Below, piece after piece: positions 2,079 to 55,488 of a DNA stretch of 64,000 nucleotides (position 1 is its first letter; every line of letters begins with the position of its first letter). The notes beneath the pieces are model-generated. The model saw nothing but the letters and a program-made list of their open reading frames with translations. It did no database searches and was not told the DNA's origin. This stretch comes from Clostridia bacterium (GTDB lineage Bacteria > Bacillota > Clostridia > UMGS1883 > UMGS1540): NCBI GenBank assembly GCA_045590195.1, contig JAZNQN010000044.1, positions 19,186-83,185 on the forward strand. The letters are read 5' to 3'. A program made the translations under genes and the position numbers.

Positions 2079-2156
<78 letters not shown>

Positions 2157-32634: not shown

Positions 32635-32662
32635 AAAAGATGGCTAAGCCATCTTTTTTATT
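32631..32662. terminator. Bidirectional terminator between dut (+) and eno (-)
   Basis: agatggct-aa-gccatct hairpin flanked by A-run and T-run. Confidence 0.7.
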
Positions 32663-33899
32663 TTTCGTGAAAATTACTTTCTATTTCCAGAAGTTTGTTA
32701 TATTTTGAATTTCTCTCACTTCGGCAAGGAGCCCCTGTTTTAATCTGTCCTGCATTTGTGCCAACTGCAAGGTCGGCAATAAAACTGTCTTCCGTTTCCC
32801 CGCTTCTGTGTGAAATAACTGTACCATAACCATTTTCCTTTGCAAGATGTATTGCCTGCAAGGTTTCGGTAACTGTTCCTATCTGATTTGGCTTTATAAG
32901 AATTGAATTTGCAATTTTTTTATCAATTCCCTTTTGAAGTCTTTTTGTGTTAGTAACAAACAAATCATCGCCAACAAGTTGTATTTTCTTCGAAAGTTTT
33001 TTTGTTAAATGGTCCCACGTTTCCATATCATCTTCTGCCGCTCCATCTTCAATTGACAAAATCGGGTAACATTCAATAAGATGCTCGTAATATGTGCAAA
33101 GCTCTTCCCCTGTCATGACAGTTCCTTTTTTCGGCATTTTGTACATTCCGTTTTCATACCACTCACTACTTGCAACGTCAAGGGCAATTTTTATATCATC
33201 ATAAAGCTTATATCCTGCTTTTTCGGTTGCTCGCATTATAAGTTCAATTGCCTCTTCCTCGCTATCTAAATCAGGTGCAAATCCGCCTTCATCTCCAACG
33301 CCCGTAGAATACCCCTGAGAGGATAAAAGCTTTTTAAGAGTATGATAAATCTCGCTACACATTTTAATTCCTACAGCAAAGGATTTGGCACTTACAGGCA
33401 TAATCATAAACTCCTGAATGTCTATATTATTATCTGCGTGTGCTCCGCCATTTAAAATATTCATCATAGGCAGCGGCATCATATAAGCATTTATTCCACC
33501 AATGTATTTGTGAAAAGGCACGCCAACGCACTTTGCCGCAAGGCGTGCATTGGCAATTGATACTGCCAAAATTGCATTAGCACCAAGATTTGATTTGTTT
33601 TCAGTTCCGTCTGCTTCAAGCATTATCCTGTCGATTTTTTCCTGTTCAAGGCAGCACTTTCCTAAGAGTGCATCTTTTATTGTGTTTTCAACATTACAAA
33701 CCGCCTTTAAAACGCCTTTACCATTAAAGCGACTGCTATCATCGTCACGAAGTTCAACCGCTTCGTGCACTCCTGTTGATGCACCTGATGGCACAGAAGC
33801 TTTTGCACTTTTGCCGCAAGAAGAAAAAATTTCTGCTTCAATTGTTGGGTTTCCTCTTGAGTCGAGTATTTCATAAGCTTTTATGTTTTTAATAATCAT
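32658..33899 (-). CDS. eno: Enolase (phosphopyruvate hydratase)
   Basis: '[13 protein letters not shown]' N-terminus and '[17 protein letters not shown]' active-site motif. Confidence 0.9.
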
Positions 33900-33960
33900 A
33901 AAGTTCTCCTTTTTGCAAATTTTTTCTTTATTGTTTGCCTAAAAGGAAAATTTATGCATA

Positions 33961-33985
33961 AAAAAACCGCTTTCGCGGTTTTTTT
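33961..33985. terminator. Rho-independent terminator after the transporter gene (possibly bidirectional)
   Basis: aaaaaaccgc-tttc-gcggttttttt. Confidence 0.7.
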
Positions 33986-33987: not shown

Positions 33988-35214
33988 TTAGAACAATATT
34001 ATCAAAAACTGTGACACAAGCACAACTGCAATAAGTGCAATAGGATAAGTTGCCGCATAAGCTGATGCAACATCTTCAGTTCCTGAAACATTTATAAGTG
34101 TTCCAAGGGCCGGAGTTGATGTCATACCACCGCAAATTGAGCCAAGAGCATTGAGAAGATTAAGCTTTAGTACATATCTTGCAAAAAGATATCCAAGTAT
34201 CATTGGCAAAATTGTCATAACAGCGCCATATACAAAGTAAACCGGCTGGAAATTCTCAACAAATTTTGCTCCGCCTGCAACACCTGCACCGATTAAGAAA
34301 AGCATAAGGCCAAGCTCGCGGAAAACTTTAAGAGTTGGCTGTGGAGGCATAATGCTTACCATACCAACCTTTCCGAAGTGACCAAAAACAAGTGCCGCAA
34401 GAAGGCATCCGCCCGTTGTTGTAAGCGAAAAAGTTGTTCCCGAAAGGCCACTTGAAGAAAGCGGAATTTTAACCATTCCAATAATAATACCAATAACTGC
34501 CGCAATTGCGAAAGCGCATATACCAAATGAATCAAGCTCTAAAAGATTTTTGGAAACCTCTTTTTTCTCAGCTTTTTCAGCGGCAACAAGCTTTTCTCTT
34601 TCCTTTGCCATATCAGCGTTAACAATCTTTGGAACAAGCTGAACAAAAAGCACAACGCCGATTACACCAAAAATATATGCAATACCATTACCAACAGCAA
34701 CTATATCTTCATACATTTCTCCAACAGTTGCTTTTGCGGCTGAAAATGCCGGTGTTGAAGTAAGTGCGCCTGAGAGAAGCCCTGCAACCATAGCAGTAAA
34801 CTTTTCTGTGTTGGTTTCTCCAAGTGCTCTGCCAATGAGAATACAAATTACAGCCGAAATTCCCCCTGCAATTATAATTATAAGGCCAAGCATAACATAA
34901 GATTTAAAATTCTTTTTCATATTGCTGAAAAATTTTGGTCCGGCAATAAATCCAACGGATGTTACAAAAAGAATAAGGCCTATATTTTCAACAATTTTAA
35001 GTGCATCTTTTGTAAAATCGCCAAGCTGTGCCTGCAGAGTTTTATAAAAAAGGCAACCAAAAACCAATGCAGCAATAAATACGCCTGCAGTACCCAGCGA
35101 TACACCTTTTATTGTTATACGGCCGAGAAGGTAGCCTGCTGCTGAAATAATAAGTACTGAAAAAACTAGAAATGTAATTCCTGTTATGGGGATAACTCCA
35201 CCAAATAAACTCAT
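33988..35214 (-). CDS. Asp-Al_Ex (YidE/YbjL/AspT-like) duplicated-repeat transporter without TrkA-C domains; putative C4-dicarboxylate/succinate transporter
   Basis: Two homologous halves each with the 'G..LG....G.F.AL.FG' (Asp-Al_Ex) motif. ATG (MSLFGG) with AAGAGGT RBS chosen over the upstream ORF-track start. Confidence 0.55.
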   Translation of the reverse strand: MSLFGGVIPITGITFLVFSVLIISAAGYLLGRITIKGVSLGTAGVFIAALVFGCLFYKTLQAQLGDFTKDALKIVENIGLILFVTSVGFIAGPKFFSNMKKNFKSYVMLGLIIIIAGGISAVICILIGRALGETNTEKFTAMVAGLLSGALTSTPAFSAAKATVGEMYEDIVAVGNGIAYIFGVIGVVLFVQLVPKIVNADMAKEREKLVAAEKAEKKEVSKNLLELDSFGICAFAIAAVIGIIIGMVKIPLSSSGLSGTTFSLTTTGGCLLAALVFGHFGKVGMVSIMPPQPTLKVFRELGLMLFLIGAGVAGGAKFVENFQPVYFVYGAVMTILPMILGYLFARYVLKLNLLNALGSICGGMTSTPALGTLINVSGTEDVASAYAATYPIALIAVVLVSQFLIILF

Positions 35215-35254
35215 TTTTAAAGACCTCTTTTCAAGTAAAATACACACAAATGCT

Positions 35255-35304
35255 ATAATGAATCTGTACCGATTCATTATAGCATAACTTCAATTATTTT
35301 ACAA
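35255..35304 (-). promoter_or_regulatory. Internal promoter (TTGTAA-17-TATAAT) for the transporter gene, overlapped by a perfect 10-bp-arm palindrome ATAATGAATC-tgtacc-GATTCATTAT (candidate operator)
   Basis: Read directly. The -10 hexamer overlaps one palindrome arm; the element sits between the frdA stop (35308) and the transporter RBS. Confidence 0.45.
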
Positions 35305-35307
35305 GTA

Positions 35308-36915
35308 TCAAATACCACTTTTCTGACCTGTGTAGTTTGGAAGAAGTTTAGGAGAAACCATATCGCCTGCAATGCCCGCCGCTTCTCTTTCAGCTTCAAA
35401 CGCAGCAATATGCTGGAGTGTAAGCTTGCCAACTTTAACATTTTTGCATTTAGCCGCCGCATTTTGACCTGCGTTTCTGCCAAATACAATAATATCTAAA
35501 AGTGAGTTACCCATAAGGCGGTTTCTGCCGTGAATTCCGCCAACAGCTTCGCCTGCAACATAAAGGTTTTCTACATTTGTTGTAGAACCATCAACATTTA
35601 TGTCAAGACCACCATTCTGATAGTGAAGTGTTGGGTAAACCAAAATTGGCTCCTTGCGGATATCAATTCCGTACTGACCAAACATTCTCATCATAGCAGG
35701 AATTCTTTTTTCAATTGTTCCCTCTCCACCTATTTTTTCAATCATAGGAGTATCAAGCCAAACACCAAGGCCGTTTCCTGTTTCAACGCCGTTGCCTCTG
35801 TCATTACATTCTCTGATAATAGAAGCCGCCGCAACGTCACGTGTTTCGAGAGGATGCATAAACACTTCGCCTTTTGAGTTTATAAGTTTGGCACCAAGTG
35901 AACGAACTTTTTCAGTAACAAGTGCACCGAAAATCTGCTGAGGATATGCAGCACCGGTTGGGTGATACTGCAAAGTTTCAGCATAAAGAAGCTTAGCCCC
36001 TACTCTGTAACCTAAAACAAGACCATCGGCAGTTGCGCCATAGTGATTCGATGTTGGGAAACCCTGATAATGCATTCTTCCTGCACCACCTGTTGCAATT
36101 ATGACAGTTTTAGCACGTGCAACCATAAGTTTTTCAGTTTCCATATTAAGGAGCACCGCACCTGCCGCGTTTCCGTTTTCATCAAGAATAATTTCGATTG
36201 CAGCTGTAAAATCAACAACAGGAATCTGTCTGTTTAAAACTTCATCTCGGAGTGTACGCATAATTTCAGCACCTGAATAGTCACGTGCAGCATGCATTCT
36301 CTTTCTTGATGTACCACCACCGTGAGTTGTAATCATTGTGCCATCTTCAGCTTTATCAAACTCAACGCCAAGGTTTGAAAGCCACCAAATAGCCTCAGGT
36401 GCATCGCAAACAAGTTTTGATAAAAGCTCGCGTTTAGCTGCAAAATGTCCGCCGCCAAAAGCATCAACAAAGTGAATTGCAGGGGAATCGTTTGGTTTGT
36501 CAGCCGCCTGAATACCACCTTCTGCCATCATTGTGTTGGCATCGCCAATACGAAGCTTTGTTACAATCATAACATCAGCCCCTGCCTCGTGAGCTTCGAT
36601 TGCGGCAGAAGAACCCGCTCCACCACCGCCAATTACAAGAACATCTACATCGTAGTCGGGTGCATCAAGGTTTACGTCTTCTGCTTTAATACGGCTTTTT
36701 GCCTCTAAAATTTCACAAAGCTCTTTTGGAACACACTGGCCTTTGTTAGGACCTATTTTAAGCTCAGAAAATTCGTCTTTTTTATAATCGGGATGATATG
36801 CCGCAAGCAAATCTTCTTTCTGTTTTGCAGTCATTCTGTCGGGCTCGTATGCAATATTTTTATCTCTCGCCGCCTCAACAGCTTTTATTGATTTTGTTAA
36901 TTCTTCTGAATACAT
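35308..36915 (-). CDS. Soluble fumarate reductase / succinate dehydrogenase flavoprotein subunit (TfrA/FrdA-like, non-covalent FAD)
   Basis: Rossmann 'VLVIGGGGAGSSAAIEA' with FAD-binding and fumarate-reductase catalytic-domain organisation. The position of the covalent-FAD histidine reads 'GDANTMMAEGG', with no His. 'HPTGA' motif present. Confidence 0.7.
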   Translation of the reverse strand: MYSEELTKSIKAVEAARDKNIAYEPDRMTAKQKEDLLAAYHPDYKKDEFSELKIGPNKGQCVPKELCEILEAKSRIKAEDVNLDAPDYDVDVLVIGGGGAGSSAAIEAHEAGADVMIVTKLRIGDANTMMAEGGIQAADKPNDSPAIHFVDAFGGGHFAAKRELLSKLVCDAPEAIWWLSNLGVEFDKAEDGTMITTHGGGTSRKRMHAARDYSGAEIMRTLRDEVLNRQIPVVDFTAAIEIILDENGNAAGAVLLNMETEKLMVARAKTVIIATGGAGRMHYQGFPTSNHYGATADGLVLGYRVGAKLLYAETLQYHPTGAAYPQQIFGALVTEKVRSLGAKLINSKGEVFMHPLETRDVAAASIIRECNDRGNGVETGNGLGVWLDTPMIEKIGGEGTIEKRIPAMMRMFGQYGIDIRKEPILVYPTLHYQNGGLDINVDGSTTNVENLYVAGEAVGGIHGRNRLMGNSLLDIIVFGRNAGQNAAAKCKNVKVGKLTLQHIAAFEAEREAAGIAGDMVSPKLLPNYTGQKSGI

Positions 36916-36927
36916 ATTGCGCCCTCC

Positions 36928-37602
36928 TTACTTTTCAATATCACGGTTATTATAAAGTTCTTTAATCTCATCAATTGGCTTTTGCATTAGAGCTTCAATA
37001 AGGTCATTGAAAGTACCATCTTTAATTTCTTTAACCCTTTCATCAAGATGGCCACAACCAGGAGCTAAATATTTACCGTTAAGTCTTCTTGCAAGCATTG
37101 CAACCTGTGGATGAGAAATACCTGCAGGACATCTTGAAGAACAAACGCCGCACATTACGCAGTCAAAAGATTCTTCAGCACATTTTTCATACTCAGCACG
37201 CTGTGCATAAGCAATATACTGCATTACATTAAGCTTCTGAGTACAAGCTTTTGTACAAGCATTACAGCCGATGCAGGAATAAATTTCAGGATAAAGCTGC
37301 ATCATAATCTGCTCAGTAGGTTTTACTTTTTCAATATCATAAATTTCTTTAACAAGCGGGAAGAATGGCAATGTAGCAATGTACATCTTATCTTCAACCT
37401 TTGTCTGACATGCAAGACAAGCTTTAAGTTCTCTGTCGCCCTCTATTCTGTAAATTGTGGCACATGCACCGCAAAAACCATTTCGGCATCCGCAACCACG
37501 TTTAAGCTGATAGCCTGCATATTCCATAGCACGCATAATTGTCATGCTGGCAGGTACTTCATATTTTTTACCGAACAAAAATATATTTACCATTTTTTCC
37601 AT
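36928..37602 (-). CDS. Fumarate reductase / succinate dehydrogenase iron-sulfur subunit (2Fe-2S + two cubane-cluster Cys motifs)
   Basis: N-terminal 2Fe-2S 'CGCRNGFCGACA' then 'CIGCNACTKAC' and 'CVMCGVCSSRCP'. ATG (MEKMVNIF) with GGAGA RBS. Confidence 0.7.
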   Translation of the reverse strand: MEKMVNIFLFGKKYEVPASMTIMRAMEYAGYQLKRGCGCRNGFCGACATIYRIEGDRELKACLACQTKVEDKMYIATLPFFPLVKEIYDIEKVKPTEQIMMQLYPEIYSCIGCNACTKACTQKLNVMQYIAYAQRAEYEKCAEESFDCVMCGVCSSRCPAGISHPQVAMLARRLNGKYLAPGCGHLDERVKEIKDGTFNDLIEALMQKPIDEIKELYNNRDIEK

Positions 37603-37621
37603 CAGTAGTATCTCCTTTTTC

Positions 37622-38452
37622 TTAGTATTCGTCAGGCAGCTCGTCAAGCTGGTCACACCTGAAAACCGGGCCGTCTTTACATACATATTTAGAACCAATG
37701 TTGCATCTGCCGCATTTACCAACGCCGCACTTCATTTTAAGTTCCATAGTAGTATAAATCTGAGTTTTTTCAAAGCCAAGTTCCTGAAGGCCCTGAAGGG
37801 TAAATTTAATCATAATAGGCGGACCACAGATTATTGCTGTTTTATTCGTGTCAAACCCGAGTTCCTTTACATAGTTTGGAACAAAGCCAACATGGCCATC
37901 CCATCCATCCTGAGGGTTATCAATTGTAAGATGAACATTTATTCCTTCATCCTTACACCATTCGTCGATAATTTCTTTATAATCAACAAGGTCGTCCATA
38001 CTTCTTGAGCCGTAAACTATATCAATTTTACCATAGCGGTCACGATAGTGACGGCAGTAGTTGATAACTGAACGAAGCGGTGCAAGGCCGATACCGCCGG
38101 CAATAAAGAGCATATCTTTGCCTGCAAATTCGGTGTCAACAGGGAAAGGATTTCCGTAAGGGCCACGAATTGTAATTTGCTGGCCTACTTCTGCCTGATG
38201 AAGCCACTCGGTAACGCAGCCGCACTTTTTAATGGAAAACTCCATATATTCAGTATTTGTTGGAGAAGAAGTAATTGAAAACATAGCCTCTCCCACTCCG
38301 GGAATTGAAAGCATTGCGCATTGACCCGGTTTATGGTCGAATGCTTTTTTGCCGTCGGGTGTTAAAACGCGGAAGGTTTTAACATCGGGGGTATCAATTC
38401 TTACATCACAAATTGTACCAATTTTTGGAATCAATGGATCTTGATTATTCAT
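37622..38452 (-). CDS. FAD/NAD(P)H-binding oxidoreductase with C-terminal Cys cluster (PyrK/NfnA/AsrB/sulfhydrogenase-gamma/FlxA-like)
   Basis: FNR-like fold 'FRVLTPDGKK..HKPGQCAML', 'LFIAGGIGLAPLRS' and C-terminal 'CGVGKCGRCN'. ATG (MNNQDP) with GGAGGTG RBS. Confidence 0.7.
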   Translation of the reverse strand: MNNQDPLIPKIGTICDVRIDTPDVKTFRVLTPDGKKAFDHKPGQCAMLSIPGVGEAMFSITSSPTNTEYMEFSIKKCGCVTEWLHQAEVGQQITIRGPYGNPFPVDTEFAGKDMLFIAGGIGLAPLRSVINYCRHYRDRYGKIDIVYGSRSMDDLVDYKEIIDEWCKDEGINVHLTIDNPQDGWDGHVGFVPNYVKELGFDTNKTAIICGPPIMIKFTLQGLQELGFEKTQIYTTMELKMKCGVGKCGRCNIGSKYVCKDGPVFRCDQLDELPDEY

Positions 38453-39461
38453 TGTCTGCACCTCCAAGTTCTTTCATAACCTTTACAATATTCATTGAAA
38501 TAGGACACTTTGAAAGGCATCTGCCACAACCAACACATCCGAATATTCCATCGTTATTTTCAGGGAAGTATACAAGTTTGTGCATAAATCTCTGACGGAA
38601 ACGTTCTTTCTGAGAATTACGGGAGTTGCCGTGAGCCATTTTAGTAAAATCGGAATACATACACGAATCCCAGCAACGAAAACGTTGAACACCATTTCCT
38701 GTGTTAAAATCTTTAATGTCATAGCACTGACAGGTTGGGCATACAAAAGTACAGGTTCCACAGCCAAGGCAGCTTTCAGAAAGTTCTTCCCATTTTGGGC
38801 TTTCAAAATACTTTTCTGTTTTACCTCCACCAAAAGCATCAGTTTTTAAATTTTTAAGTGGAAGTTTTTCAATGTAAGTGCGAATTTTTGCTTTTTCTTC
38901 ATCTGCGGCTACAGTATCGCACTCCTGGCCAATCCCTTCAAGAAGAGCAGTTCCTTTTTCAGTTTTTGCGTCGATATAAACCACATCATCAACAATTGTG
39001 CATTCAACATCTCCACCGGGTGCAGAAGCATCAATACCAAAAGCAGCACAAAAACAAGTTTCTTCAGGGCGCGAGCAAGCAACAGTTATTATAGTTGCTC
39101 CCTCTCTTCTTTTCTGATAGAATGTGTCAACAGGTTCTGAGAGAAAAACTCTGTCAAGAATTTCAAAGCTTTTAAGATCGCAGGCGCGAACACCAAAAAT
39201 CGCAAAATTACCAATATCTTCACGAATATCGATAACTTCTATATTTTTGCCTTCTGTTTTAAAGTGCATCATATTTTCAACCTGAGGAAAGAAAAAGTCT
39301 TTCGCGCTCCTGGTTGTGTTAAGTTTTTTGGAATATTCTATTCCTTCTTCCCATTTTTTAAATGAAGCACCTTCTTTTCCGTCAGCCGGGAGATAAAGTG
39401 GCATTTTATCGGCAACGGCCTTGAAAAAATCGCAAATGTTAATTTTACGCATTTTCGCCAT
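38445..39461 (-). CDS. 4Fe-4S cluster protein (AsrA / sulfhydrogenase-beta / FlxB/C-like)
   Basis: 'CLGCGTCTFVCPTCQCYD' and 'CVGCGRCLSKCP' ferredoxin motifs; ~338 aa as in AsrA. Confidence 0.65.
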   Translation of the reverse strand: MAKMRKINICDFFKAVADKMPLYLPADGKEGASFKKWEEGIEYSKKLNTTRSAKDFFFPQVENMMHFKTEGKNIEVIDIREDIGNFAIFGVRACDLKSFEILDRVFLSEPVDTFYQKRREGATIITVACSRPEETCFCAAFGIDASAPGGDVECTIVDDVVYIDAKTEKGTALLEGIGQECDTVAADEEKAKIRTYIEKLPLKNLKTDAFGGGKTEKYFESPKWEELSESCLGCGTCTFVCPTCQCYDIKDFNTGNGVQRFRCWDSCMYSDFTKMAHGNSRNSQKERFRQRFMHKLVYFPENNDGIFGCVGCGRCLSKCPISMNIVKVMKELGGADNE

Positions 39462-40437
39462 CTCCTTTCTCCACAGCCTCGGAAGGCTCTAAATCTTCTG
39501 TAGTGTAGTTTACAAGCGGAGCACGAAGGCCTACTTCTTCCCCTGCCTGATACTCACCATAGAAAGAGTTTATATCTTTTATAAACTTACGGTTTAAAAG
39601 ATGAAGTGGAATGTTTTGCGGACAAACTCTTGAACATTCGCCGCAATCTGTACATCTTCCGGCAACGTGAAAAGCTCTTATAATGTGAAACATTTTTTCT
39701 TCAAAGCTATCTGCTGCGGCTTTGTTTTCCACGCCTGATTTAGGATTGCCAAATACGCACTGTTCACAAGTACAAGCGGGACAGACATCGCGGCAGGCAT
39801 TACATCTTATACATCTTGAAAGCTCGCCCTGCCAGAAAGCAAATCTTTCATCGGCAGACATTTTTTCAAGGCGCTTAACTTCATCAAAGCGGTTAGAATC
39901 AATAATTTCGCCTTCGTCGCCAATAAGTTCATCGTATGCAACATGCTTGCGGCTTTTGCAAGAGATGCATCTTTCAGCTAAAACATCAGCTTTATTAAAT
40001 ACTTTTTCATCGCCATAAATTGATTTTACCAAAATTTCATCGCCGTTTTCCAAAATTTCAGAAACAGCAGAAATTTCAGCTTTAATTTTTGAAACATCAG
40101 TCATTCCATCGCAGGGAATTCCAACGGCATAAACTTTTTCGCGGTCTATGCGGTGTTCAGTTAAAAGCTGATTAAAACTGTATGTGTCACATGGTTTCAA
40201 GAAAACCAGCACTTTTCCATCTTTCTGGCATTCTTTTACTAGATATTTTGAAAAGTTTGCACCACAAAAAGCATTGTAAACAAAATCTTTTTTAAGAGAT
40301 TCGGCATCTTTAAACACACCGGGGGTTACATCGTATGAAAACTCGCCCTCTTTCCAGCCTAAAACTCTGTCAACCTTTCCGCTTTCAAGGAGGTTTAATG
40401 CTTTATCTATAAGAATATCACGATTTATTGTTTGCAT
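39445..40437 (-). CDS. FrhB/FdhB-like flavoprotein (coenzyme F420 hydrogenase/dehydrogenase beta-subunit family) with 4Fe-4S motifs
   Basis: N-terminal FrhB_FdhB_N-like region and C-terminal 'CIRCNACRDVCPACTCEQC' / 'CTDCGECSRVCP' clusters. Confidence 0.55.
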   Translation of the reverse strand: MQTINRDILIDKALNLLESGKVDRVLGWKEGEFSYDVTPGVFKDAESLKKDFVYNAFCGANFSKYLVKECQKDGKVLVFLKPCDTYSFNQLLTEHRIDREKVYAVGIPCDGMTDVSKIKAEISAVSEILENGDEILVKSIYGDEKVFNKADVLAERCISCKSRKHVAYDELIGDEGEIIDSNRFDEVKRLEKMSADERFAFWQGELSRCIRCNACRDVCPACTCEQCVFGNPKSGVENKAAADSFEEKMFHIIRAFHVAGRCTDCGECSRVCPQNIPLHLLNRKFIKDINSFYGEYQAGEEVGLRAPLVNYTTEDLEPSEAVEKGDGENA

Positions 40438-40859
40438 CTTAAATCCTCCAATCTTTTGTTTTCGCCAAGAGCAGCAACTGCTTCGGCAAATTCATTCATT
40501 GTTTGCGCAAATTTTGCGCCTTCAGCCGCAGAAACCCATTCAACACGGGTTCTTTCTTTTTCAATACCGAGAAAATCGAGCATTGAGAAAAGAAGCGACA
40601 TTCTTCTTCTTGTATAGTAGTTACCAGAAGTATAATGGCAGTCGCCAGGGTGGCAACCACAGATTATAACCCCGTCTGCTCCACGCTGAAATGCTCTTAA
40701 AATAAACATTGGGTTTACCCTACAAGAGCATGGAACACGAATTATTTTAACTTCGGCAGGGTAACTGAGTCGGTTATTACCTGCAAGGTCGGCACCGGCA
40801 TAAGAACACCAGTTACAGCAAAATGCCACTATTAAAGGTTTTTTCTCTTCTATTTGCAT
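40425..40859 (-). CDS. mvhD: MvhD/FlpD-family hydrogenase iron-sulfur subunit (FlxD-like)
   Basis: 'IVAFCCNWCSYAGADLAG...IIRVPCSCRVNP...GADGVIICGCHPGDCHYTSGN' matches the MvhD Cys pattern. Confidence 0.8.
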   Translation of the reverse strand: MQIEEKKPLIVAFCCNWCSYAGADLAGNNRLSYPAEVKIIRVPCSCRVNPMFILRAFQRGADGVIICGCHPGDCHYTSGNYYTRRRMSLLFSMLDFLGIEKERTRVEWVSAAEGAKFAQTMNEFAEAVAALGENKRLEDLRCKQ

Positions 40860-42844
40860 ATTGCATCCACCTCCGCTAAAATTTGTGCATTTTTAAAGCC
40901 TTTTAAATCCATTGCACCTGATGGACAGGCAACTGTACAAGCACCGCAGCCCTGACAAACAGCTTCATTAACCTGAGCTACGCGGCGCATTTTTGTTGTT
41001 CTGTTTGGCATACGGAACTCTTTAACTACATAAGTTATTGCACCATATGGGCAAACTCTTTCGCAACTACTGCATCCGTTACACATCATTTCGTCTGATG
41101 CGGCAATACAAGGATTACCAAGAAGTTTATCTTTGCATAAAAGGCCGATAACCTTTGAAGCCGCCGCTCCCGCCTGGGAAACAGTTTCAGGAATATCTTT
41201 CGGGCCTTGACAAGCACCTGACAAAAATACGCCTGCGGTTGGGCTTTCAACCGGACGAAGCTTTGGATGAGCCTCGGTAAAGAAATCGTTTGTATCCATA
41301 CTTGCAGTGAGCATTGTTGCAAGAGGACGAGCTGATTTATCAGGCTCGATTGCGGCTGCTAAAACAACCAAATCTGCATCAATGTTAATCTGTTTATTTG
41401 AAATTAAATCGCTTGCACGCACTTTAAGCTTATCGCCTTCAGGCATAATTTTGCCAACCATACCTTTAATGTAGTGAACACCAAATTCCTCGGTTGCTCT
41501 TCTGTAAAATTCGTCAAAGTTTTTACCGGGAGTTCTGACATCGATGTAGAATACTGTTACGTCAGTATCCGGATATTTATCACGAGTGAGCATTGCGTGT
41601 TTCGCTGTGTACATACAACAAATTTTAGAACAGTATTCCTTACCTTTTTCATTGCATGCATCGCATCTTGAACCTACGCACTGAACGAAAACGATTTTTT
41701 CAGGATGTTTTCCGTCTGAAGGGCGTAAGAGTTTACCTGCTGTTGGGCCTGCCGCATTGGTAAGACGCTCAAATTCGAGAGAAGTTATAACATCTTTCGA
41801 CTGGTTATAAGCATACTCATCAAATTTTTCCATACTGATAGGATTAAAGCCTGTTGCAACAACAATTGCACCATATTTTTCTTCTATAATTTCATCCTGT
41901 TGCTTATAATTGATAGCTCCTGCTGCACAAACCTTTTCACAAAGGCCGCACTTGCCATTTTTAAGCATATTACAGTAATCAGCATCAATTGTTGCAACCT
42001 TTGGAACTGCCTGAGCAAAAGGAATATAAACCGCTCTTCTCATATCCATTCCAAGGTTAAATTCATTAGGAACTTTCTTTTGAGGACATTTTTCTGTACA
42101 AAGGCCGCAACCTGTACATTTAGTTTCGTCAACAAATCTTGCTTTTTTCTTAATTTTTACATCAAAATTTCCTACAAAACCGGAAACTGCTTCAACTTCG
42201 CTATAGGAAAAAATTCTTATTTTATCGTTCTGTGCAACATCAACCATTTTTGGAGTTAAAATACAAGCCGCACAGTCAAGTGTTGGGAAGGTTTTATCAA
42301 TCTGCGCCATCTTGCCGCCGATTGTAGGATTTTTTTCAACTATATCTACCGGGAAACCTGCATCGGCAATATCAAGAGCTGTTTGAATACCTGCAATACC
42401 GCCACCGATAACCAAAGCACGCTTTGTAACAGGGCTTTCGCCAGGTGTAAGCGGAGCGTTAAGGTTAACCTTTGCAACAGCCGCTTTGCCCAAAATAATT
42501 GCTTTTTCAGTTCCTGTAGGGATATCTTTATGAACCCATGAGCACTGCTCACGAATGTTTGCAATTTCAACCATATAAGGGTTAATCCCTGCACTTTCAG
42601 CGGTTTTTCTGAAAGTATTCTCGTGCATACGGGGTGAACAGGAACAAATAACTATACCGGTAAGATTATGCTCTTTAATAGCATCTTTAATCATTTCCTG
42701 TCCCGCTTGGGAACACATATACTGATAGTTAGTGGAGAAAACAACACCAGGCTCTTTTTTCAAGGCTTCGCTAACTGCTTCAACATCAACAGTTGCCGCA
42801 ATATTGCTTCCGCACCAACATACGAATACACCAATTCTTTGCAT
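40850..42844 (-). CDS. hdrA: Heterodisulfide reductase subunit A (HdrA-like FAD/Fe-S flavoprotein)
   Basis: N-terminal 'CWCGSN' cluster, Rossmann 'ALVIGGGIAGIQTALDIA', inserted ferredoxin domain, 'CVGSRCDACNEKGKEYCSKICC' motif, C-terminal 4Fe-4S motifs. Confidence 0.85.
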   Translation of the reverse strand: MQRIGVFVCWCGSNIAATVDVEAVSEALKKEPGVVFSTNYQYMCSQAGQEMIKDAIKEHNLTGIVICSCSPRMHENTFRKTAESAGINPYMVEIANIREQCSWVHKDIPTGTEKAIILGKAAVAKVNLNAPLTPGESPVTKRALVIGGGIAGIQTALDIADAGFPVDIVEKNPTIGGKMAQIDKTFPTLDCAACILTPKMVDVAQNDKIRIFSYSEVEAVSGFVGNFDVKIKKKARFVDETKCTGCGLCTEKCPQKKVPNEFNLGMDMRRAVYIPFAQAVPKVATIDADYCNMLKNGKCGLCEKVCAAGAINYKQQDEIIEEKYGAIVVATGFNPISMEKFDEYAYNQSKDVITSLEFERLTNAAGPTAGKLLRPSDGKHPEKIVFVQCVGSRCDACNEKGKEYCSKICCMYTAKHAMLTRDKYPDTDVTVFYIDVRTPGKNFDEFYRRATEEFGVHYIKGMVGKIMPEGDKLKVRASDLISNKQINIDADLVVLAAAIEPDKSARPLATMLTASMDTNDFFTEAHPKLRPVESPTAGVFLSGACQGPKDIPETVSQAGAAASKVIGLLCKDKLLGNPCIAASDEMMCNGCSSCERVCPYGAITYVVKEFRMPNRTTKMRRVAQVNEAVCQGCGACTVACPSGAMDLKGFKNAQILAEVDAICK

Positions 42845-42858
42845 TTGCTTTCTCCTTT

Positions 42859-43251
42859 CTATTTACTATATTTTCTCATTGCACTTACAATTGCCTGTTG
42901 TGGCAACTGTTCATCTAAAAGTGAAGGTATTGCATCAGCTTTAAGATGATTTTCGCCCTGCTGACGTACTTTTAAAAGCCTTACTGCTTCAATAAGTTTT
43001 GCCGGCTCTACGCCTCTGGGACAACGCTCAACACAGGCAAAACAAGAAAGACATTTGAAAATTGAAGGCGACTCCATAAGTTTATCAACATCACCGTTTT
43101 CAACCATATAAACAAACTGATGAGGATGATATTCCATTTCATCATAAGAAGGACATGTACCTGTGCATTTGCCGCATTTCATACATTTTTTAGGATTAAC
43201 ACCGCTGATGCGCAAAATTTCGTTTGAAAGCTCTGTTTTATTCATTTGCAC
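42859..43251 (-). CDS. hdrC: Heterodisulfide reductase subunit C (HdrC, 2x[4Fe-4S])
   Basis: 'CMKCGKCTGTCP' and 'CLSCFACVERCP'. Confidence 0.8.
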   Translation of the reverse strand: MQMNKTELSNEILRISGVNPKKCMKCGKCTGTCPSYDEMEYHPHQFVYMVENGDVDKLMESPSIFKCLSCFACVERCPRGVEPAKLIEAVRLLKVRQQGENHLKADAIPSLLDEQLPQQAIVSAMRKYSK

Positions 43252-44032
43252 AGCCCTCCTTTACGCCAAGCGCCTGTGCTAAAAGCTCGGTAAAATATTT
43301 AATTTCTATACCGTCGGCGTGTTTTTCAAGATTATATTTGCAAAGTGGGCAAGCTGTTACTATCATATCTGCACCCATTTTTTTGGCACTTTCCAAAATA
43401 GCAATACTCTTCTTCTTTGCACTTTCACTATCTTCAAGAGCTATATATCCGCCGCAGCATTCGTTTCTGTATGGCGAAACTATTGCTTCCGCACCCATAG
43501 CTTTTACAAGATTTTCAAGAATCTGCGGATTTTCGCTGTCGTCCATCTGCATAACTTTACCAGGACGAAGCAAAAGACAACCATAATATGGAGCAATTTT
43601 TTTACCCTCAAGAGGATTTGTAACTTTTTTGGCAATTTCTTCAAAGCCAATTTCATCTCTCAAAAGCTCAAGATAATGAATAACCTCTGCATCTCCCTCA
43701 TAAGGCGTATCAAGATTCATATAGTTATTTGCTTTAAAAGCAAAATCGCTATCGTTATTAAACTGATAATTTGTTTGTTTTATTACATTATGGCAGGCAG
43801 CACAAACTGTTACAAGCTTCTGACCTTTTTCTTTTGCCTCTACAAGGGCACGAATTGAGGAAAGCTTTGTTGCAATTTCATCCTTCGAAGTTGTAAAAAC
43901 TCCGCCGCAGCACTGCCAGTTATTTATTTCTTCCAGATTAACCCCTAATGCCGCCGCACTTTCTCTTGCGTATTTATCAAGTTCTTTTGCTTTGGTTTTA
44001 AGAGTACAACCGGGATAATATGAAAAATTCAT
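43238..44032 (-). CDS. hdrB: Heterodisulfide reductase subunit B (HdrB, two CCG domains)
   Basis: 'YYPGCTL', 'CCGG' and 'CAACHN' in repeat 1; 'YYGCLL', 'CCGG' and 'CPLCKYN' in repeat 2. ATG (MNFSYY) with AGGGAG RBS. Confidence 0.8.
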   Translation of the reverse strand: MNFSYYPGCTLKTKAKELDKYARESAAALGVNLEEINNWQCCGGVFTTSKDEIATKLSSIRALVEAKEKGQKLVTVCAACHNVIKQTNYQFNNDSDFAFKANNYMNLDTPYEGDAEVIHYLELLRDEIGFEEIAKKVTNPLEGKKIAPYYGCLLLRPGKVMQMDDSENPQILENLVKAMGAEAIVSPYRNECCGGYIALEDSESAKKKSIAILESAKKMGADMIVTACPLCKYNLEKHADGIEIKYFTELLAQALGVKEGCANE

Positions 44033-44054
44033 ACCTAAACTCCCTTCTGCAAAA

Positions 44055-45431
44055 TTATACCATCTGTTCAGGATGGAACACTTCGTCAAATTTTTCTTCG
44101 GTTAAAAAGCCAAGCTCGATACAAGCCTCTTTAAGAGAAATATTGTCTTTATAAGCTTTTTTAGCTGTTTTAGCCGCATTTTCATAACCGATATAAGGGT
44201 TAAGCGCAGTAACAAGCATAAGTGAATTATGAAGATTATGATGCATTTTTTCGCGGTTTGCCTTAATGCCTACTGCACAGTTTTTGTTAAATGAAACAAT
44301 GGCTTCTGCCATAAGACGTGCCGACTGCAAAAAGTTATATATGCATACAGGCATAAATACATTAAGTTCAAAGTTACCCTGTGAAGCTGCCATAGAAACA
44401 GCAACATCATTACCCATTACCTGAACGGCAACCATTGTTACCGCTTCACACTGAGTTGGGTTAACTTTACCCGGCATAATTGATGAGCCCGGTTCATTTT
44501 CAGGGATGAAAATTTCTCCAAGGCCATCACGAGGACCGCTTGCAAGCCAACGGATATCGTTTGCTATTTTCATCATATCGCAGGCAAGGGCTTTAATTGC
44601 ACCATGTGCAAAAACAAGCTCGTCTTTTGAAGTTAATGCGTGAAATTTATTCTCAGCAGTTACAAATGGTTTTCCTGTTATTTTCGAAACCTCTGCCGCA
44701 ACGCCTTCTGAAAAACCTTTTGGAGCATTAAGTCCTGTTCCAACTGCAGTTCCGCCAAGTGCAAGTTCACAAAGCGGCTTTACGCTTTGCTTCAAAAGCT
44801 CTACATCTTTCTGGAGGCTTGATCTCCAGCCGCTGATTTCCTGGCTGAATTTTATTGGAGTTGCATCCTGAAGATGTGTTCTTCCGCTTTTTACTATATC
44901 TTCGTTTTCTTTTTCAAGGCGTGAAAAAGTATCGATAAGAGTTTGGACAGCAGGAATAAGTTTATCTTCTATCATCAAAACTGCGGAAATATGCATAGCT
45001 GTAGGGAAAGTATCGTTTGACGACTGGCTCATATTAACATCATCATTAGGATGAAGAATACTTTTGCCCGCAATCTGATTTCCACGGTTTGCAATTACTT
45101 CGTTTGCATTCATATTCGACTGAGTGCCGGAGCCCGTTTGCCATACAACAAGAGGAAAATGGCTATTAAGCTTGCCGCTTATAACCTCATCGCAAGCACT
45201 GGAAATTGCCGAAAGTTTTTCTTCAGTCATTTTTTCGGGTTTCAAAGCGTGATTTGCGATTGCTGCAGCTTTTTTCAAAATGCCGAATGCATGTGTAATT
45301 TCACGTGGCATTGTTTCAATATTTACACCGATTTCAAAATTTTCGTGACTTCTCTGGGTTTGAGCCGCCCACAACCTGTCGGCAGGAACTTTAACCTCTC
45401 CCATCGAGTCGTGTTCAATACGATAATCCAT
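44055..45431 (-). CDS. fumC: Fumarate hydratase class II
   Basis: '[15 protein letters not shown]', '[12 protein letters not shown]', '[16 protein letters not shown]' fumarase/aspartase signature. The AQTQRS and SSNDTFPT variants favour FumC over AspA. Confidence 0.8.
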
Positions 45432-45449
45432 AACTACTCCTCTTTTCTT

Positions 45450-46406
45450 TTATATATCCATTTGTTTTATAAGTGATTTCAAAGTATCTGCGCTATGGTG
45501 AAGTGCGCGAACCTCTTCATCATTAAGAGGCAAAAGCATTTTTCCACAAGCGCCCTTGTTGTCAACAACATTGAGAAGGCTCAAAGAAACATCATCTATT
45601 CCATATTCGCCGTGAAGCATTGTTGAAACAGTCATAGTAGTATTTATACCGCCGAGAATACATTTACAAATGTGGCAAACAGATACTGAAACAGCGTAGA
45701 ATGTTGCACCTTTTCTTTCAATAACTCTTCCGCCTGATTTGCGAACATAATCCTCAACTTCATCAAAGTCTATACTTGGCAGCTTAAAGCCTTTCTGAGA
45801 AAAATCGCCTACTACCGAAGACTGACCTTCCTGAATAGGAATGTTAGATACATTTGCAATTGACCACGGAACAAAAGAAGAATCACCATGTTCACCAAGA
45901 ACATAGGCGTGAACATTTTTCTGGTTGATTGAGTAATACTCCGAAAGCCTTGCACGAAGGCGGGCGGTATCAAGAATAGTTCCCGAACCTATAATCTGAT
46001 TTTCAGGAAGCCCTGAACATTTAAAGAATGTGTAAGTTAAAATGTCAACAGGATTGCTCACTATAAGGTAAACTGCATTTGGTGCATAGCGAACAATTTC
46101 AGGAATAATCTGTTTAGTAATATTAACATTTGTCTGAGCAAGGTCAAGCCTTGACTGACCTGGCTTTCTTGCAATACCTGAAGTTACTATTACTATATTT
46201 GAGCCTACTGCATCCTGATATGAACCTGCGTAAACTGTTGCTGATGAGCAAAACGGTGTTCCCTGGCGAATGTCAAGTGCTTCGCCAAGTGCTTTTTCCT
46301 GATTAATATCAATAAGCACAATTTCAGATGCCAGCCCCATAACAGTTAAAGTATACGCAATTGTTGAGCCAACACTACCTGTTCCTATTATTGTAATTTT
46401 GTTCAT
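45450..46406 (-). CDS. mdh: Malate dehydrogenase (LDH-like MDH family)
   Basis: 'ITIIGTGSVGS' Rossmann and 'GSGTILDTARLR'. Specificity motif 'GIARKPGQSRLDL' has Arg at the Gln/Arg discriminator, as in MDH. Confidence 0.65.
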   Translation of the reverse strand: MNKITIIGTGSVGSTIAYTLTVMGLASEIVLIDINQEKALGEALDIRQGTPFCSSATVYAGSYQDAVGSNIVIVTSGIARKPGQSRLDLAQTNVNITKQIIPEIVRYAPNAVYLIVSNPVDILTYTFFKCSGLPENQIIGSGTILDTARLRARLSEYYSINQKNVHAYVLGEHGDSSFVPWSIANVSNIPIQEGQSSVVGDFSQKGFKLPSIDFDEVEDYVRKSGGRVIERKGATFYAVSVSVCHICKCILGGINTTMTVSTMLHGEYGIDDVSLSLLNVVDNKGACGKMLLPLNDEEVRALHHSADTLKSLIKQMDI

Positions 46407-46447
46407 GGTATTCTTCCTTTCGTGTATGAAATATCGTTACAACCTCA

Positions 46448-46476
46448 ATTGTAGCACACATTTAAATTAAAATCAA
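46448..46476 (-). promoter_or_regulatory. Sigma-A-type promoter (TTGATT-17-TACAAT) for the mdh-fumC-hdr-flx-frd operon
   Basis: Minus strand reads TTGATTttaatttaaatgtgtgcTACAAT about 40 nt upstream of the mdh RBS (GGAAGA). Confidence 0.45.
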
Positions 46477-46482
46477 TAGAAA

Positions 46483-46500
46483 TTGATAATTTTTTAACAA
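46483..46500. promoter_or_regulatory. Rex-like operator (TTGTTAA-aaaa-TTATCAA on minus strand; 13/14 match to the Clostridial consensus TTGTTAAnnnnTTAACAA)
   Basis: Read directly; lies immediately upstream of the -35 of the mdh operon promoter. Confidence 0.45.
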
Positions 46501-46508: not shown

Positions 46509-46545
46509 AAAAAGCTAACTCTATATTTAAATATAGAGTTTTAGC
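46509..46545 (-). terminator. AT-rich perfect palindrome AACTCTATATTT/AAATATAGAGTT followed by a T-run: terminator of the upstream hydrogenase operon
   Basis: 24-bp perfect inverted repeat at 46517-46540 followed by agcttttt on the minus strand. Confidence 0.5.
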
Positions 46546-46546: not shown

Positions 46547-47980
46547 TTATATTATACTGTTTGCATCACTCACGGCGTTATATATAGTTTTGTCTGCGGC
46601 CTTTTTTCCGAAGTTATCTATCATATTTTTATCGCGCGATGTGTGAGTAAGGCACCCTGCCCCACCAATACAACCACCAACACAAGCCATACCTTCTATA
46701 AAGTTTGCATCGAGCATCCCTTTGCTTTTCTTCAGAAGGTTTATTTTACACTCTTCAATTCCGTCGCACGAAATTGCATTAAGTGTAAAGTCGGTTACTC
46801 CTTTTTCTTTAAGCCCCTGTGCAACTGCATCGGCAAGGCCACCACAACGGGCAAAAATTCTTCCGAAATACGATGCGCCGTCAAGTTCGCTTTCTTCAAG
46901 AGAAGTAATATCTATATCGCGGCTGTCAAAAAGCGCCTGAAGCTCTTCAAAAGTTAAAACAGTATCAACATATTTTGAAACTTCTGCTTTCTGTGCCTCA
47001 GCTTTTTTTGCAGTACATGGACCGATAAAAATAACTTTTGCACTTTCATCGTGTTCTTTAATGTATTTTGCAATAGTTGCCATTGGCGAAAGATTATGTG
47101 AAATATTTTCAGAAAGGTTATCAAAATTTTGCTCAATATATTTTACAAACGCAGGGCAACAAGAGCTTGTTAAAAATCTTTTTTCTGCAAGCTCCTCTGC
47201 TTCGGATGCTGCAACCATATCAGCGCCAAGTGCAGCCTCAACAACATTGAAAAATCCGAGTTCTTTAATACCTGTCACAACCTGACCAAGCCTTGCATAG
47301 TTAAACTGACTTGAAATTGTAGGTGCAACAACGGCATAAATATTATACTTTGTATTATTTTCGCTACCTTTTAAAAGGTCGATTGCATCGAGAATAAATG
47401 ATTTATCTGTAATTGCGCCAAATGGGCACTGATATACACAGGCTCCACACGCAATACATTTATCATCAAGAATTTTTGCCGACATATCTACATTCGTTTC
47501 AATTGCATCCACCTTGCAAGCGCTTTGGCACGGACGACGGTAGTTTGCAATTGCGTTGAACGGACAAACTTTTGCGCAGGCACCACAGTTTTTACACTTG
47601 GTTTTATCAATGTGCGCTTTTGGGTTTTCATCAAAAGTTATGGCACCAAATTTGCAAACATCTTCACATCTGTGTGCCAGGCATCCGCGGCATGAATGAG
47701 TTACCTCGTATCCGCCCATAGGACATTCATCGCAGGCAATACTGATAACTTCAATTACATTTTTATTCCTTTTGTTACCACCCATCGCCATTTTAACTCT
47801 TTTTGCAAGAATGGCTCTTTCTTTATAAACGCAGCAACGCATAGTTGCCTCTTTCCCGGGCACAAGTATTTCCGGGATGTCGGATATATTTTCCATAAGA
47901 GTACCTGCCCAGTACAGACGGGCAACTTCTCTTAATACTTTATATTTCAGGTGTTGAACTTTAGTATCAAACTTTCTCAT
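46547..47980 (-). CDS. hydA: [FeFe] hydrogenase, monomeric type, with N-terminal multi-cluster ferredoxin domain
   Basis: H-cluster motifs 'TSSCCPAFV', 'FIGPCTAKKAE', 'EGMACVGGCIGGAG', plus four N-terminal CxxCxxCxxxC-type motifs. ATG (MRKFDT) with GGTGA RBS. Confidence 0.85.
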   Translation of the reverse strand: MRKFDTKVQHLKYKVLREVARLYWAGTLMENISDIPEILVPGKEATMRCCVYKERAILAKRVKMAMGGNKRNKNVIEVISIACDECPMGGYEVTHSCRGCLAHRCEDVCKFGAITFDENPKAHIDKTKCKNCGACAKVCPFNAIANYRRPCQSACKVDAIETNVDMSAKILDDKCIACGACVYQCPFGAITDKSFILDAIDLLKGSENNTKYNIYAVVAPTISSQFNYARLGQVVTGIKELGFFNVVEAALGADMVAASEAEELAEKRFLTSSCCPAFVKYIEQNFDNLSENISHNLSPMATIAKYIKEHDESAKVIFIGPCTAKKAEAQKAEVSKYVDTVLTFEELQALFDSRDIDITSLEESELDGASYFGRIFARCGGLADAVAQGLKEKGVTDFTLNAISCDGIEECKINLLKKSKGMLDANFIEGMACVGGCIGGAGCLTHTSRDKNMIDNFGKKAADKTIYNAVSDANSII

Positions 47981-47990
47981 AATATTCACC

Positions 47991-51095: not shown

Positions 51096-51107
51096 AAATA
51101 AATCATT

Positions 51108-51152: not shown

Positions 51153-51160
51153 ATATGTTA

Positions 51161-51409: not shown

Positions 51410-51411
51410 TA

Positions 51412-53109: not shown

Positions 53110-53113
53110 TTTC

Positions 53114-55466: not shown

Positions 55467-55488
55467 AGTTTTACTCCTTTGTTTTTAA

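Follow-up and report, generated by a model that had tools for sequence, protein, structure and literature searches.

What is the partner of a fumarate reductase whose genes lie beside no membrane anchor and next to a full set of Hdr- and Flx-type genes? The question is raised by an operon in a stretch of 64,000 nucleotides (64 kb; hereafter the window) from a Clostridia bacterium (assembly GCA_045590195.1, contig JAZNQN010000044.1, positions 19,186 to 83,185), in which genes of the reductive C4 branch are joined to hdrABC, mvhD and flx-like genes. An earlier note, made from the sequence of the window without database searches, had read the operon as a candidate electron-bifurcating fumarate reductase. 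We consider it probable that the operon encodes a reductive C4 branch ending in a soluble bifurcating complex, with the overall reaction 2 NADH + fumarate + Fd(ox) -> 2 NAD+ + succinate + Fd(red), where Fd is ferredoxin. Conserved synteny, intact catalytic and cluster-binding residues and archaeal HdrCB-FrdBA gene sets support the earlier reading, while bifurcation itself is a step that we infer.

All coordinates are given in window numbering, and all twelve operon genes are on the minus strand. Open reading frames and Pfam/NCBIfam domains place twelve consecutive genes at 33988-46406 in the order mdh, fumC, hdrB, hdrC, hdrA, mvhD/flxD, flxC, flxB, flxA, frdB, frdA and transporter, mdh being the first and an AAE-family transporter the last, as the earlier note had listed them. 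The note had put the gaps and overlaps among the first eleven genes at 25 nt or less, and with plausible start codons the gaps are at most 22 nt and the overlaps at most 17 nt. Specifically, there are gaps of 18 nt (mdh-fumC), 22 nt (fumC-hdrB), 14 nt (hdrC-hdrA), 19 nt (flxA-frdB) and 12 nt (frdB-frdA), and overlaps of 8-14 nt (hdrB-hdrC), 10 nt (hdrA-mvhD), 13 nt (mvhD-flxC), 17 nt (flxC-flxB) and 8 nt (flxB-flxA). A spacer of 93 nt separates frdA from the transporter gene. No membrane-anchor gene is present among the twelve, so that the absence of an frdC/D-type anchor at the locus, also claimed previously, holds.

The presumed terminal reductase is encoded by frdA (35308..36915) and frdB (36928..37602). 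The frdA product is a flavoprotein of the FAD_binding_2 family (PF00890, 224 bits), where FAD is flavin adenine dinucleotide. Its relatives carry only the name "FAD-dependent oxidoreductase" at NCBI, and every NCBIfam Frd, Sdh and NadB model scores below its cutoff on the window protein; the top model is TfrA, with 339 bits against a cutoff of 718. The catalytic residues of Escherichia coli FrdA are nevertheless all found in the alignment, with H232, T234, E245, R248, R287, H355 and R390 corresponding to H318, T320, E335, R338, R359, H431 and R466, respectively. None of the seven varies among 81 close sequences or within a family alignment of 119 sequences whose identity goes down to 38%; the invariant set includes both carboxylate-binding His/Arg pairs together with the Arg that donates the proton. 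Asn127 stands at the position of the covalent-FAD His44 of the E. coli enzyme, and this Asn is invariant in the family. In E. coli FrdA, mutants of H44 retain fumarate reduction and lose succinate oxidation. The FAD of the window FrdA is predicted to be non-covalent, and operation as a succinate dehydrogenase appears disfavoured for this reason. The protein lacks the C-terminal helical domain of FrdA, SdhA and NadB (there is no PF02910 match, and the chain ends about 40 residues past the FAD domain), and it carries a conserved N-terminal extension of 88 residues with an invariant His41-Pro42. An AlphaFold2 model of FrdA (predicted local distance difference test score, 94; predicted template modelling score, 0.93) has 1kf6_A as its top Foldseek match, and it matches E. 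coli FrdA, mycobacterial Sdh1, flavocytochrome c3 and NadB over approximately 450 residues.

FrdB is an iron-sulfur subunit with domains of the Fer2 and Fer4 families, corresponding to one [2Fe-2S] and two [4Fe-4S] clusters. Its second cluster motif (CVMCGVCSSRCP) has a Cys where E. coli FrdB has Val207 and thus contains four Cys, which predicts two [4Fe-4S] clusters and no [3Fe-4S] cluster. Two [4Fe-4S] clusters are the pattern of the type-E and TfrB iron-sulfur proteins, which are partners of CCG proteins. A natural FrdB-FrdA fusion also exists: P0122, the 727-residue representative of a 50%-identity cluster, is 56% identical to the window FrdA, and it is useful both as a Rosetta-stone protein and as a single-chain expression target. 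Because the catalytic residues, Asn127, the missing C-terminal domain, the FrdB motif and the frdB-frdA pairing all point the same way, FrdBA appears to represent a distinct subfamily of soluble fumarate reductases that work in one direction. The signature of this subfamily consists of Asn at the covalent-FAD His position, the N-terminal extension with His-Pro, the absence of the C-terminal domain and a partner with [2Fe-2S] and two [4Fe-4S] clusters.

Four better known identities were considered for this pair and rejected. A classical quinol:fumarate or succinate:quinone reductase is excluded by the lack of anchor genes and of the covalent-FAD His. The earlier note had allowed for L-aspartate oxidase (NadB) as the identity of the flavoprotein; the NadB model scores below cutoff (TIGR00551, 265 against 453), the position of NadB Glu121 is occupied by His, and an Fe-S partner is always adjacent or fused, all of which speak against it. 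A bona fide TfrAB was rejected on the TfrA score given above, on the TfrB score of FrdB (40 bits against a cutoff of 385) and on the lack of a CCG domain in FrdB. Reverse operation as a succinate dehydrogenase was rejected in view of the predicted non-covalent FAD and the unfavourable thermodynamics.

The seven genes upstream of frdB encode a complete Hdr/Flx module. HdrA (40850..42844) is a full-length putative bifurcating FAD/Fe-S subunit (696 bits to 5odc_A). Its residues 3-661 align end to end with Methanothermococcus HdrA (5odc_A) with every Cys motif in register, and both ferredoxin domains are present with all cluster ligands. HdrB-like protein (43238..44032) contains two CCG domains (PF02754) and keeps all ten cluster cysteines in alignments to 8rvv_B and 5odc_B; it scores about equally on the SdhE/MFR (type-E) anchor models and the HdrB models. 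HdrC-like protein (42859..43251) has two [4Fe-4S] motifs of the Fer4 families and matches TIGR03290 with 70 bits, which is below the cutoff. MvhD/FlxD (40425..40859; PF02662, 188 bits) is a [2Fe-2S] connector. The FlxC-like Fe-S protein (39445..40437) is related to FdhB/FrhB and matches 9t1s_M, 7bkb_E and 8rvu_E with E values of about 1e-23; the similarity to FdhB of the Fdh-Hdr supercomplexes covers residues 16-114 and 200-285, that is, the N-terminus and the Fe-S domain. The FlxB-like Fe-S protein (38445..39461) is of the AsrA/sulfhydrogenase-beta type (PF17179, 107 bits; ShyB model, 172 bits, together with HydB and AsrA models). FlxC-like and FlxB-like proteins have only the Fe-S motif in common, and FlxC is closer to FdhB. 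The FlxA-like protein (37622..38452), an NAD(P)H/FAD/[2Fe-2S] input subunit of the AsrB/sulfhydrogenase-gamma type, has NAD_binding_1, FAD_binding_6 and DHODB_Fe-S_bind domains and matches NF006220 with 230 bits. The TfrB model is matched piecewise in this operon, by FrdB at 18-98, HdrC at 123-220 and HdrB at 260-485. TfrB thus looks like a natural Rosetta-stone fusion that would support a contact between FrdB and HdrB.

The first two genes would supply the substrate. The mdh product (45450..46406) belongs to the LDH clade of the Ldh/Mdh family, LDH and MDH being lactate and malate dehydrogenase, and it passes the cutoffs of the NCBIfam L-LDH models. Its motif GIARKPGQSRLDL has Arg at the Gln102 specificity position, as do all 46 of 46 homologues. 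Gln at this position gives LDH and Arg gives MDH, and Q102R in LDH is the classic switch of specificity from LDH to MDH. On the basis of this Arg and the known switch, the first gene probably encodes a malate dehydrogenase of the LDH clade, in agreement with the function that the earlier note had assigned to it, although the protein as a whole groups with LDH. Since its whole-protein scores favour the LDH models, automatic annotation would name it LDH, and its Arg can be viewed as a natural counterpart of that switch. The fumC gene (44055..45431) encodes a class II fumarate hydratase (TIGR00979, 715 bits, cutoff 665). At the other end of the operon, the transporter (33988..35214) belongs to the Asp-Al_Ex (AspT/YidE/YbjL) group (PF06826, 202 bits; TIGR01625) and is a putative succinate exporter or C4-dicarboxylate exchanger. 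The AAE family includes a succinate exporter (PMC9527358).

In a scan of one genome per species, at least 588 stretches encode a relative of the flavoprotein, and the gene order of the best 80 of them (82-87% identical) was examined with the window proteins using tblastn. The 80 loci stem from metagenome-assembled genomes (MAGs) of Clostridia from gut, rumen and caecum, and some from isolates, among them the cultured carrier Yeguia hominis (L050). Each locus is from the genome of a different species, and there was not a single violation of order or strand and no internal gap. The synteny of frdAB with hdrABC and mvhD in Clostridia, which the earlier note had suggested checking, is therefore present in 80/80 of these best loci, and an arrangement of this kind is far beyond chance. 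The core hdrB-hdrC-hdrA-mvhD-flxC-flxB-flxA-frdB-frdA is complete in 54 of the 80, and all other cases are cut by a contig end. In contrast, approximately 26 (about a third) have no transporter gene although their contigs are long enough to include it, three lack mdh, and two lack mdh and fumC alike. The transporter is an accessory gene. Because the core stays whole while mdh, fumC and the transporter come and go, it is the nine-gene core that is selected as a unit, with the C4-branch genes as frequent accessories. Neither a thiol-carrier gene nor another acceptor enzyme is conserved in the clusters of these best 80 loci.

The search for close homologues yielded relatives with at least 84% identity, and more distant contexts were reached by a search of representatives followed by the queries P0121 and P0136. 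In the representative search, the subfamily with the N-terminal extension amounts to only a handful of 50%-identity clusters. The nearest non-clostridial cluster is archaeal (Bathyarchaeia, Asgard and other lineages) with about 54% identity, and the archaeal FrdBA relatives show 51-57%. An Asgard MAG (GCA_052584985.1) has the order HdrA-MvhD-MvhG-MvhA-HycI-HdrC-HdrB-FrdB-FrdA in one locus (L083). The hdrA gene of this locus (2563-4591) contains one in-frame stop followed by an in-frame continuation with good similarity to HdrA; the stop is not at a Cys position of methanogen HdrA and could be due to recoding, a sequencing error or a pseudogene. A second locus of the same MAG (L085) and one of another archaeon (L086) contain HdrC-HdrB-HdrA, a flavoprotein of approximately 1000 residues, MvhD, an FrhB-like protein and FrdB-FrdA. 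A further archaeon (L084) has a divergent HdrA/MvhD fusion followed by HdrB-FrdB-FrdA, and a Bathyarchaeon (L082) has malic enzyme, both fumarase subunits (alpha and beta) and FrdB-FrdA.

Several bacterial contexts have no link to Hdr. In Thermodesulfobacteriota (L089), aconitase, isocitrate dehydrogenase and 2-oxoacid:ferredoxin oxidoreductase (OFOR) genes lie beside FrdBA. In the sister clade of P0129 (L090-L164), citrate synthase, MDH, FrdB-FrdA, a NuoF-like NADH module and OFOR are found together, and in its 75 metagenomic loci frdB precedes frdA wherever the contig reaches upstream. In members such as L104 (9348-12871) and L093 (9320-12906), FrdB-FrdA is followed by a gene for a NuoF-like protein with flavin mononucleotide, NADH and 4Fe-4S sites, and this set is a candidate three-subunit soluble NADH:fumarate reductase of marine and sediment bacteria. 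In a WOR-3 genome (GCA_037481955.1; L088, 7889-12715), an EtfA-like gene, a small ferredoxin and an acyl-CoA dehydrogenase flank FrdB-FrdA; this setting hints at another mode of electron input or coupling, or at a different substrate.

The constant proximity of FrdBA to enzymes of C4 metabolism and the tricarboxylic acid (TCA) cycle supports fumarate as the substrate. From its contexts, FrdBA behaves like an acceptor unit to which exchangeable donor modules are joined, and wherever HdrA occurs, HdrCB recurs as the partner on which FrdBA docks. That archaeal variants with Mvh-Hdr-FrdBA or an FrhB-like protein exist suggests an old and interchangeable module. A broader proposal, which we regard as evenly poised, is that FrdBA is a portable fumarate acceptor module that docks on HdrCB in Bacteria and Archaea and defines a cross-domain class of Hdr-type bifurcation with interchangeable donors. 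These donors would be NADH via Flx in hundreds of species of gut and rumen Clostridia, H2 via MvhAGD in an Asgard archaeon, and an FrhB-like or large-flavoprotein input in other archaea. No description of the archaeal Mvh-Hdr-FrdBA arrangement was found in the literature, the coverage of which was incomplete; in papers on Asgard archaea, Culexarchaeia and Cloacimonadota, Frd and Hdr are each mentioned, with no link drawn between them.

We propose the following pathway for the operon. Oxaloacetate would be converted via malate and fumarate to succinate, which would then be exported. FlxA would oxidize NAD(P)H, and FlxB, FlxC and MvhD/FlxD would carry the electrons to the FAD of HdrA, where the electron pair would be bifurcated. 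The downhill electron would pass through HdrC to the non-cubane clusters of HdrB, then through the three clusters of FrdB to the non-covalent FAD of FrdA and to fumarate, and the uphill electron would leave through the ferredoxin domains of HdrA to ferredoxin. Several parts of this scheme are inferred: that the proteins associate physically, that HdrB contacts FrdB, that the donor is NADH and not NADPH, that ferredoxin is the second acceptor, and that the stoichiometry is as given. The transfer of electrons from NADH to fumarate is worth approximately -58 kJ/mol (PMC13147460), which is therefore enough to drive the transfer from a second NADH to ferredoxin, and the thermodynamic plausibility claimed for the reaction in the earlier note stands. 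Strict synteny, intact catalytic and cluster residues and the archaeal association of FrdBA with HdrCB under different inputs support fumarate as the high-potential acceptor. Bifurcation is the most likely mode of coupling because archaeal FrdBA relatives adjoin HdrCB with other input modules and because other clades pair FrdBA with NuoF-like or TCA-cycle genes. Two HydAB-type hydrogenase sets and NfnAB are encoded just upstream of the operon in the window, and they may provide routes for re-oxidizing the reduced ferredoxin.

Some of our observations weigh against this scheme or narrow it. In this organism, it is gene order that suggests the formation of a complex. FrdBA seems to need no Hdr in principle, because the pair also occurs with the NuoF-like gene (P0129 clade), with Etf-like and acyl-CoA dehydrogenase genes (WOR-3) or alone. 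The intact active site of HdrB, which is of the disulfide-reductase type, would leave room for a thiol intermediate. All Hdr subunits score below the cutoffs of the NCBIfam CoB-CoM equivalogs (coenzymes B and M), namely HdrA2 789/1100, HdrB 135/345 and HdrC 70/160, and the Hdr proteins are thus, as judged from these scores, homologous to the methanogen CoB-CoM enzyme without being that enzyme. The FlxC-like protein is about 60 residues shorter than FdhB in the flavin-binding middle part, and the Pfam domain FrhB_FdhB_C matches it with a non-significant E value of 0.054. Of the term "FrhB-like flavoprotein" used in the earlier note, the part "FrhB-like" is fair in view of the FdhB-like N-terminus and Fe-S domain, and flavin binding by this protein is uncertain. 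Finally, the likeness of the operon to the genes CDQ83_RS03315-RS03365 of Pseudoclostridium (Hungateiclostridium) thermosuccinogenes was judged from the published description and not from sequence.

The alternative that survives best, although we consider it unlikely, is a non-bifurcating soluble NADH:fumarate oxidoreductase, in which the Flx and Hdr proteins would do no more than conduct electrons from NAD(P)H to FrdAB, leaving ferredoxin unreduced. Soluble NADH-dependent fumarate reductases are known, including the five-subunit enzyme from Hydrogenobacter thermophilus (Miura et al. 2008, as summarized in PMC13147460), and the P0129 clade joins FrdBA to a simple NADH module. However, a wire of seven proteins that includes a full-length HdrA is hard to explain when one NuoF-like subunit suffices elsewhere, and the 58 kJ/mol or so would be wasted in a fermenter.

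Coupling through a thiol, which is quite unlikely in our estimation, would have Flx-HdrABC reduce a disulfide (DsrC-like or of low molecular weight), as proposed for Desulfovibrio, and fumarate would be reduced in a thiol-dependent, Tfr-like manner instead of receiving the electrons directly. The ten cysteines of disulfide-reducing non-cubane clusters in HdrB would fit this, the named models nearest to FrdA and FrdB are those of TfrA and TfrB, and the authors of the P. thermosuccinogenes study write "ferredoxin (and thiols)" (PMC7282089). Against it, the operon encodes only one CCG protein, FrdB has no CCG domain for thiol oxidation, and, as noted above, the best 80 loci share no thiol-carrier gene. 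To our knowledge, bacteria have neither CoM nor CoB, which also weighs against this explanation.

The two halves of the operon might also be co-transcribed and yet independent, with Flx-Hdr balancing NADH and ferredoxin using another acceptor and FrdAB being fed by ferredoxin or another donor. FrdBA without Hdr in several lineages is consistent with such a separation, and the Flx-Hdr of Desulfovibrio is tied to ethanol metabolism rather than to fumarate (Ramos et al. 2015, as cited in PMC7282089). Nevertheless, the adjacency is strict in the bacterial loci examined and recurs independently in archaea with other inputs, and the clusters contain no other conserved acceptor enzyme; we therefore regard independence as improbable. 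An L-aspartate oxidase or a reductase of another unsaturated acid is very improbable, since the generic names of relatives, the sub-cutoff Frd, Sdh and NadB scores and the presence of urocanate and other reductases in the FAD_binding_2 superfamily are set against invariant substrate-binding and proton-donor residues, His at the NadB Glu121 position, an obligate Fe-S partner that is fused in P0122, and neighbours such as fumarase, MDH, malic enzyme and TCA-cycle genes in bacteria and archaea.

The operon appears to be delimited by its own transcription signals. Directly after the upstream [FeFe]-hydrogenase gene, a hairpin followed by a T-run (AACTCTATAT-TTAA-ATATAGAGTT, then AGCTTTTT; 46517..46540, minus strand) is a likely terminator that shields the operon from upstream transcription. 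A predicted promoter, recognized by its match to the consensus (TTGATT, a 17-nt spacing and a TG-extended TACAAT), is located at 46448..46476 on the minus strand and is followed by the ribosome-binding site GAAAGGAAG. The promoter-like site and palindrome that the earlier note had placed in the 93-nt spacer are both there: TTGTAA-17-TATAAT at 35276-35304, overlapped by a perfect AT-rich palindrome with a 15-bp stem (35250..35285, minus strand), which may act as an operator or attenuator of the transporter gene. The transcription unit is predicted to end at a GC-rich intrinsic terminator 3' of the transporter gene (AAAAAAACCGC-GAAA-GCGGTTTTTTT; 33960..33985, minus strand). An Rfam search matched no RNA family in the operon or the spacer, and the only matches in the window were a 6S RNA gene (22133-22328, plus strand, 55.8 bits) and one tRNA gene (2082-2155, minus strand). 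Directly 3' of the operon terminator, an enolase gene with its own ribosome-binding site (32658-33899, minus strand) supplies phosphoenolpyruvate, the precursor of the oxaloacetate used in the C4 branch.

Directly upstream of the operon lies a dense "redox island" of hydrogen and ferredoxin genes, all on the minus strand (46547-61611). Nearest the operon is the gene for a monomeric group B1 [FeFe] hydrogenase (46547-47989), which scores above the TIGR04105 cutoff. Beyond it come genes for a PP2C/SpoIIE-like phosphatase (47991-49163) and for a HydS-like sensory hydrogenase whose C-terminus holds a sensor region (49156-50838). The island also has two pairs of HydA and NuoF-like HydB (51412-54988 and 57975-61611), with NfnAB-like genes between them (55489-57772).

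If the complex bifurcates, putatively quinone-independent fermenters would gain one extra reduced ferredoxin per fumarate, usable for H2 formation or ion pumping. Fumarate would also become one of the few high-potential acceptors proven for Hdr-type bifurcation. Models of fermentation in gut and rumen, where the cluster occurs in several hundred species-level genomes, would need different redox and ATP balances. Under the broader cross-domain proposal, this bifurcation would represent a widespread and biochemically undescribed form of energy conservation in succinate-forming anaerobes. In biotechnology, it would account for the unusual response of P. thermosuccinogenes-type succinate production to H2 and CO2 (PMC7282089). 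The hypothesis is directly testable, as cultured carriers such as Y. hominis exist.

The locus combines features of several known systems. It shares the catalytic residues and the flavoprotein fold with FrdABCD and the type-E SdhABE, the latter of which also has a CCG protein beside a subunit with two [4Fe-4S] clusters, whereas the window enzyme has no membrane anchors, no covalent-FAD His and no C-terminal flavoprotein domain and has an extra N-terminal domain. The five-subunit enzyme of H. thermophilus is, by its description in PMC13147460, likewise soluble, NADH-dependent, irreversible and composed of multiple subunits; according to the same summary of Miura et al. (2008), its genes are dispersed, and bifurcation is not reported there. 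Methanothermobacter TfrAB resembles the window set in being soluble and quinone-independent and in combining an Frd flavoprotein, SdhB-like clusters and CCG chemistry. TfrB is one polypeptide, while its three parts are split over FrdB, HdrC and HdrB in the window, and the electrons would come from HdrA instead of CoM-SH and CoB-SH.

The architecture and cluster ligands of HdrA, HdrB, HdrC and MvhD are those of the methanogen MvhAGD-HdrABC and Fdh-Hdr supercomplexes (5ODC, 7BKB and 8RVU), and the window FlxC resembles the methanogen FdhB subunit that docks to MvhD. In contrast to these supercomplexes, FlxAB in the window would draw electrons from NAD(P)H in place of H2 or formate, and FrdBA would pass them to fumarate in place of CoM-S-S-CoB. 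The Asgard locus L083 joins Mvh, Hdr and FrdBA. FlxABCD-HdrABC of Desulfovibrio vulgaris (Ramos et al. 2015) consists of the same seven subunit types. The order is inverted in the window, hdrBCA-flxDCBA rather than flxABCD-hdrABC, and this inverted order is kept in the best 80 loci. Moreover, the window module is linked to frdBA rather than to adh and DsrC, its FlxC is FdhB-like, and its presumed acceptor is fumarate instead of a protein disulfide.

Literature searches on bifurcating, Flx-Hdr-linked or novel fumarate reductases returned no biochemical characterization, in accordance with the earlier note, which knew of no such description. The idea itself is not original, however, as the same proposal has been published for two other groups of bacteria. 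Candidatus Endoriftia persephone, a symbiont of Riftia, and Thioflavicoccus mobilis have tfrAB-flxABCD-hdrABC-korABCD clusters, for which the same bifurcation hypothesis was put forward by Rubin-Blum et al. (2019, PMC6315080), and a survey from 2026 still treats the tfrAB/Flx-Hdr idea as a suggestion supported by co-expression (PMC13147460). In both cases, an AB-type soluble fumarate reductase is interleaved with Flx-Hdr. These Gammaproteobacteria are reverse-TCA autotrophs in which the cluster includes 2-oxoglutarate:ferredoxin oxidoreductase, whereas the window operon serves a succinate branch in a fermentative setting, in which mdh, fumC and a putative exporter gene accompany the reductase.

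The closest likeness is to the "succinate operon" of P. thermosuccinogenes, for which a novel fumarate reductase coupled to Flx-Hdr bifurcation was explicitly proposed (PMC7282089, BMC Microbiol 2020), as it was in a 2019 preprint by Koendjbiharie and van Kranenburg (10.20944/preprints201912.0288.v1, as cited by PMC7282089). A fumarate hydratase gene, seven Flx-Hdr genes, two fumarate reductase genes and a gene for a putative succinate transporter follow one another there in the same order as in the window. Transcriptomics showed approximately four-fold co-induction of that operon under CO2 limitation, and the addition of H2 abolished succinate formation (PMC7282089), which fits coupling to ferredoxin. 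The window adds the LDH-clade mdh in front, and its genome is that of a mesophile-like, low-GC Clostridia member of the gut or rumen. Three points go further than what has been published: how broadly the cluster is distributed among Clostridia of gut and rumen, which sequence signature defines the FrdA subfamily, and how modular the system is across domains of life. The bifurcation reading is plausible, and these comparative data strengthen it.

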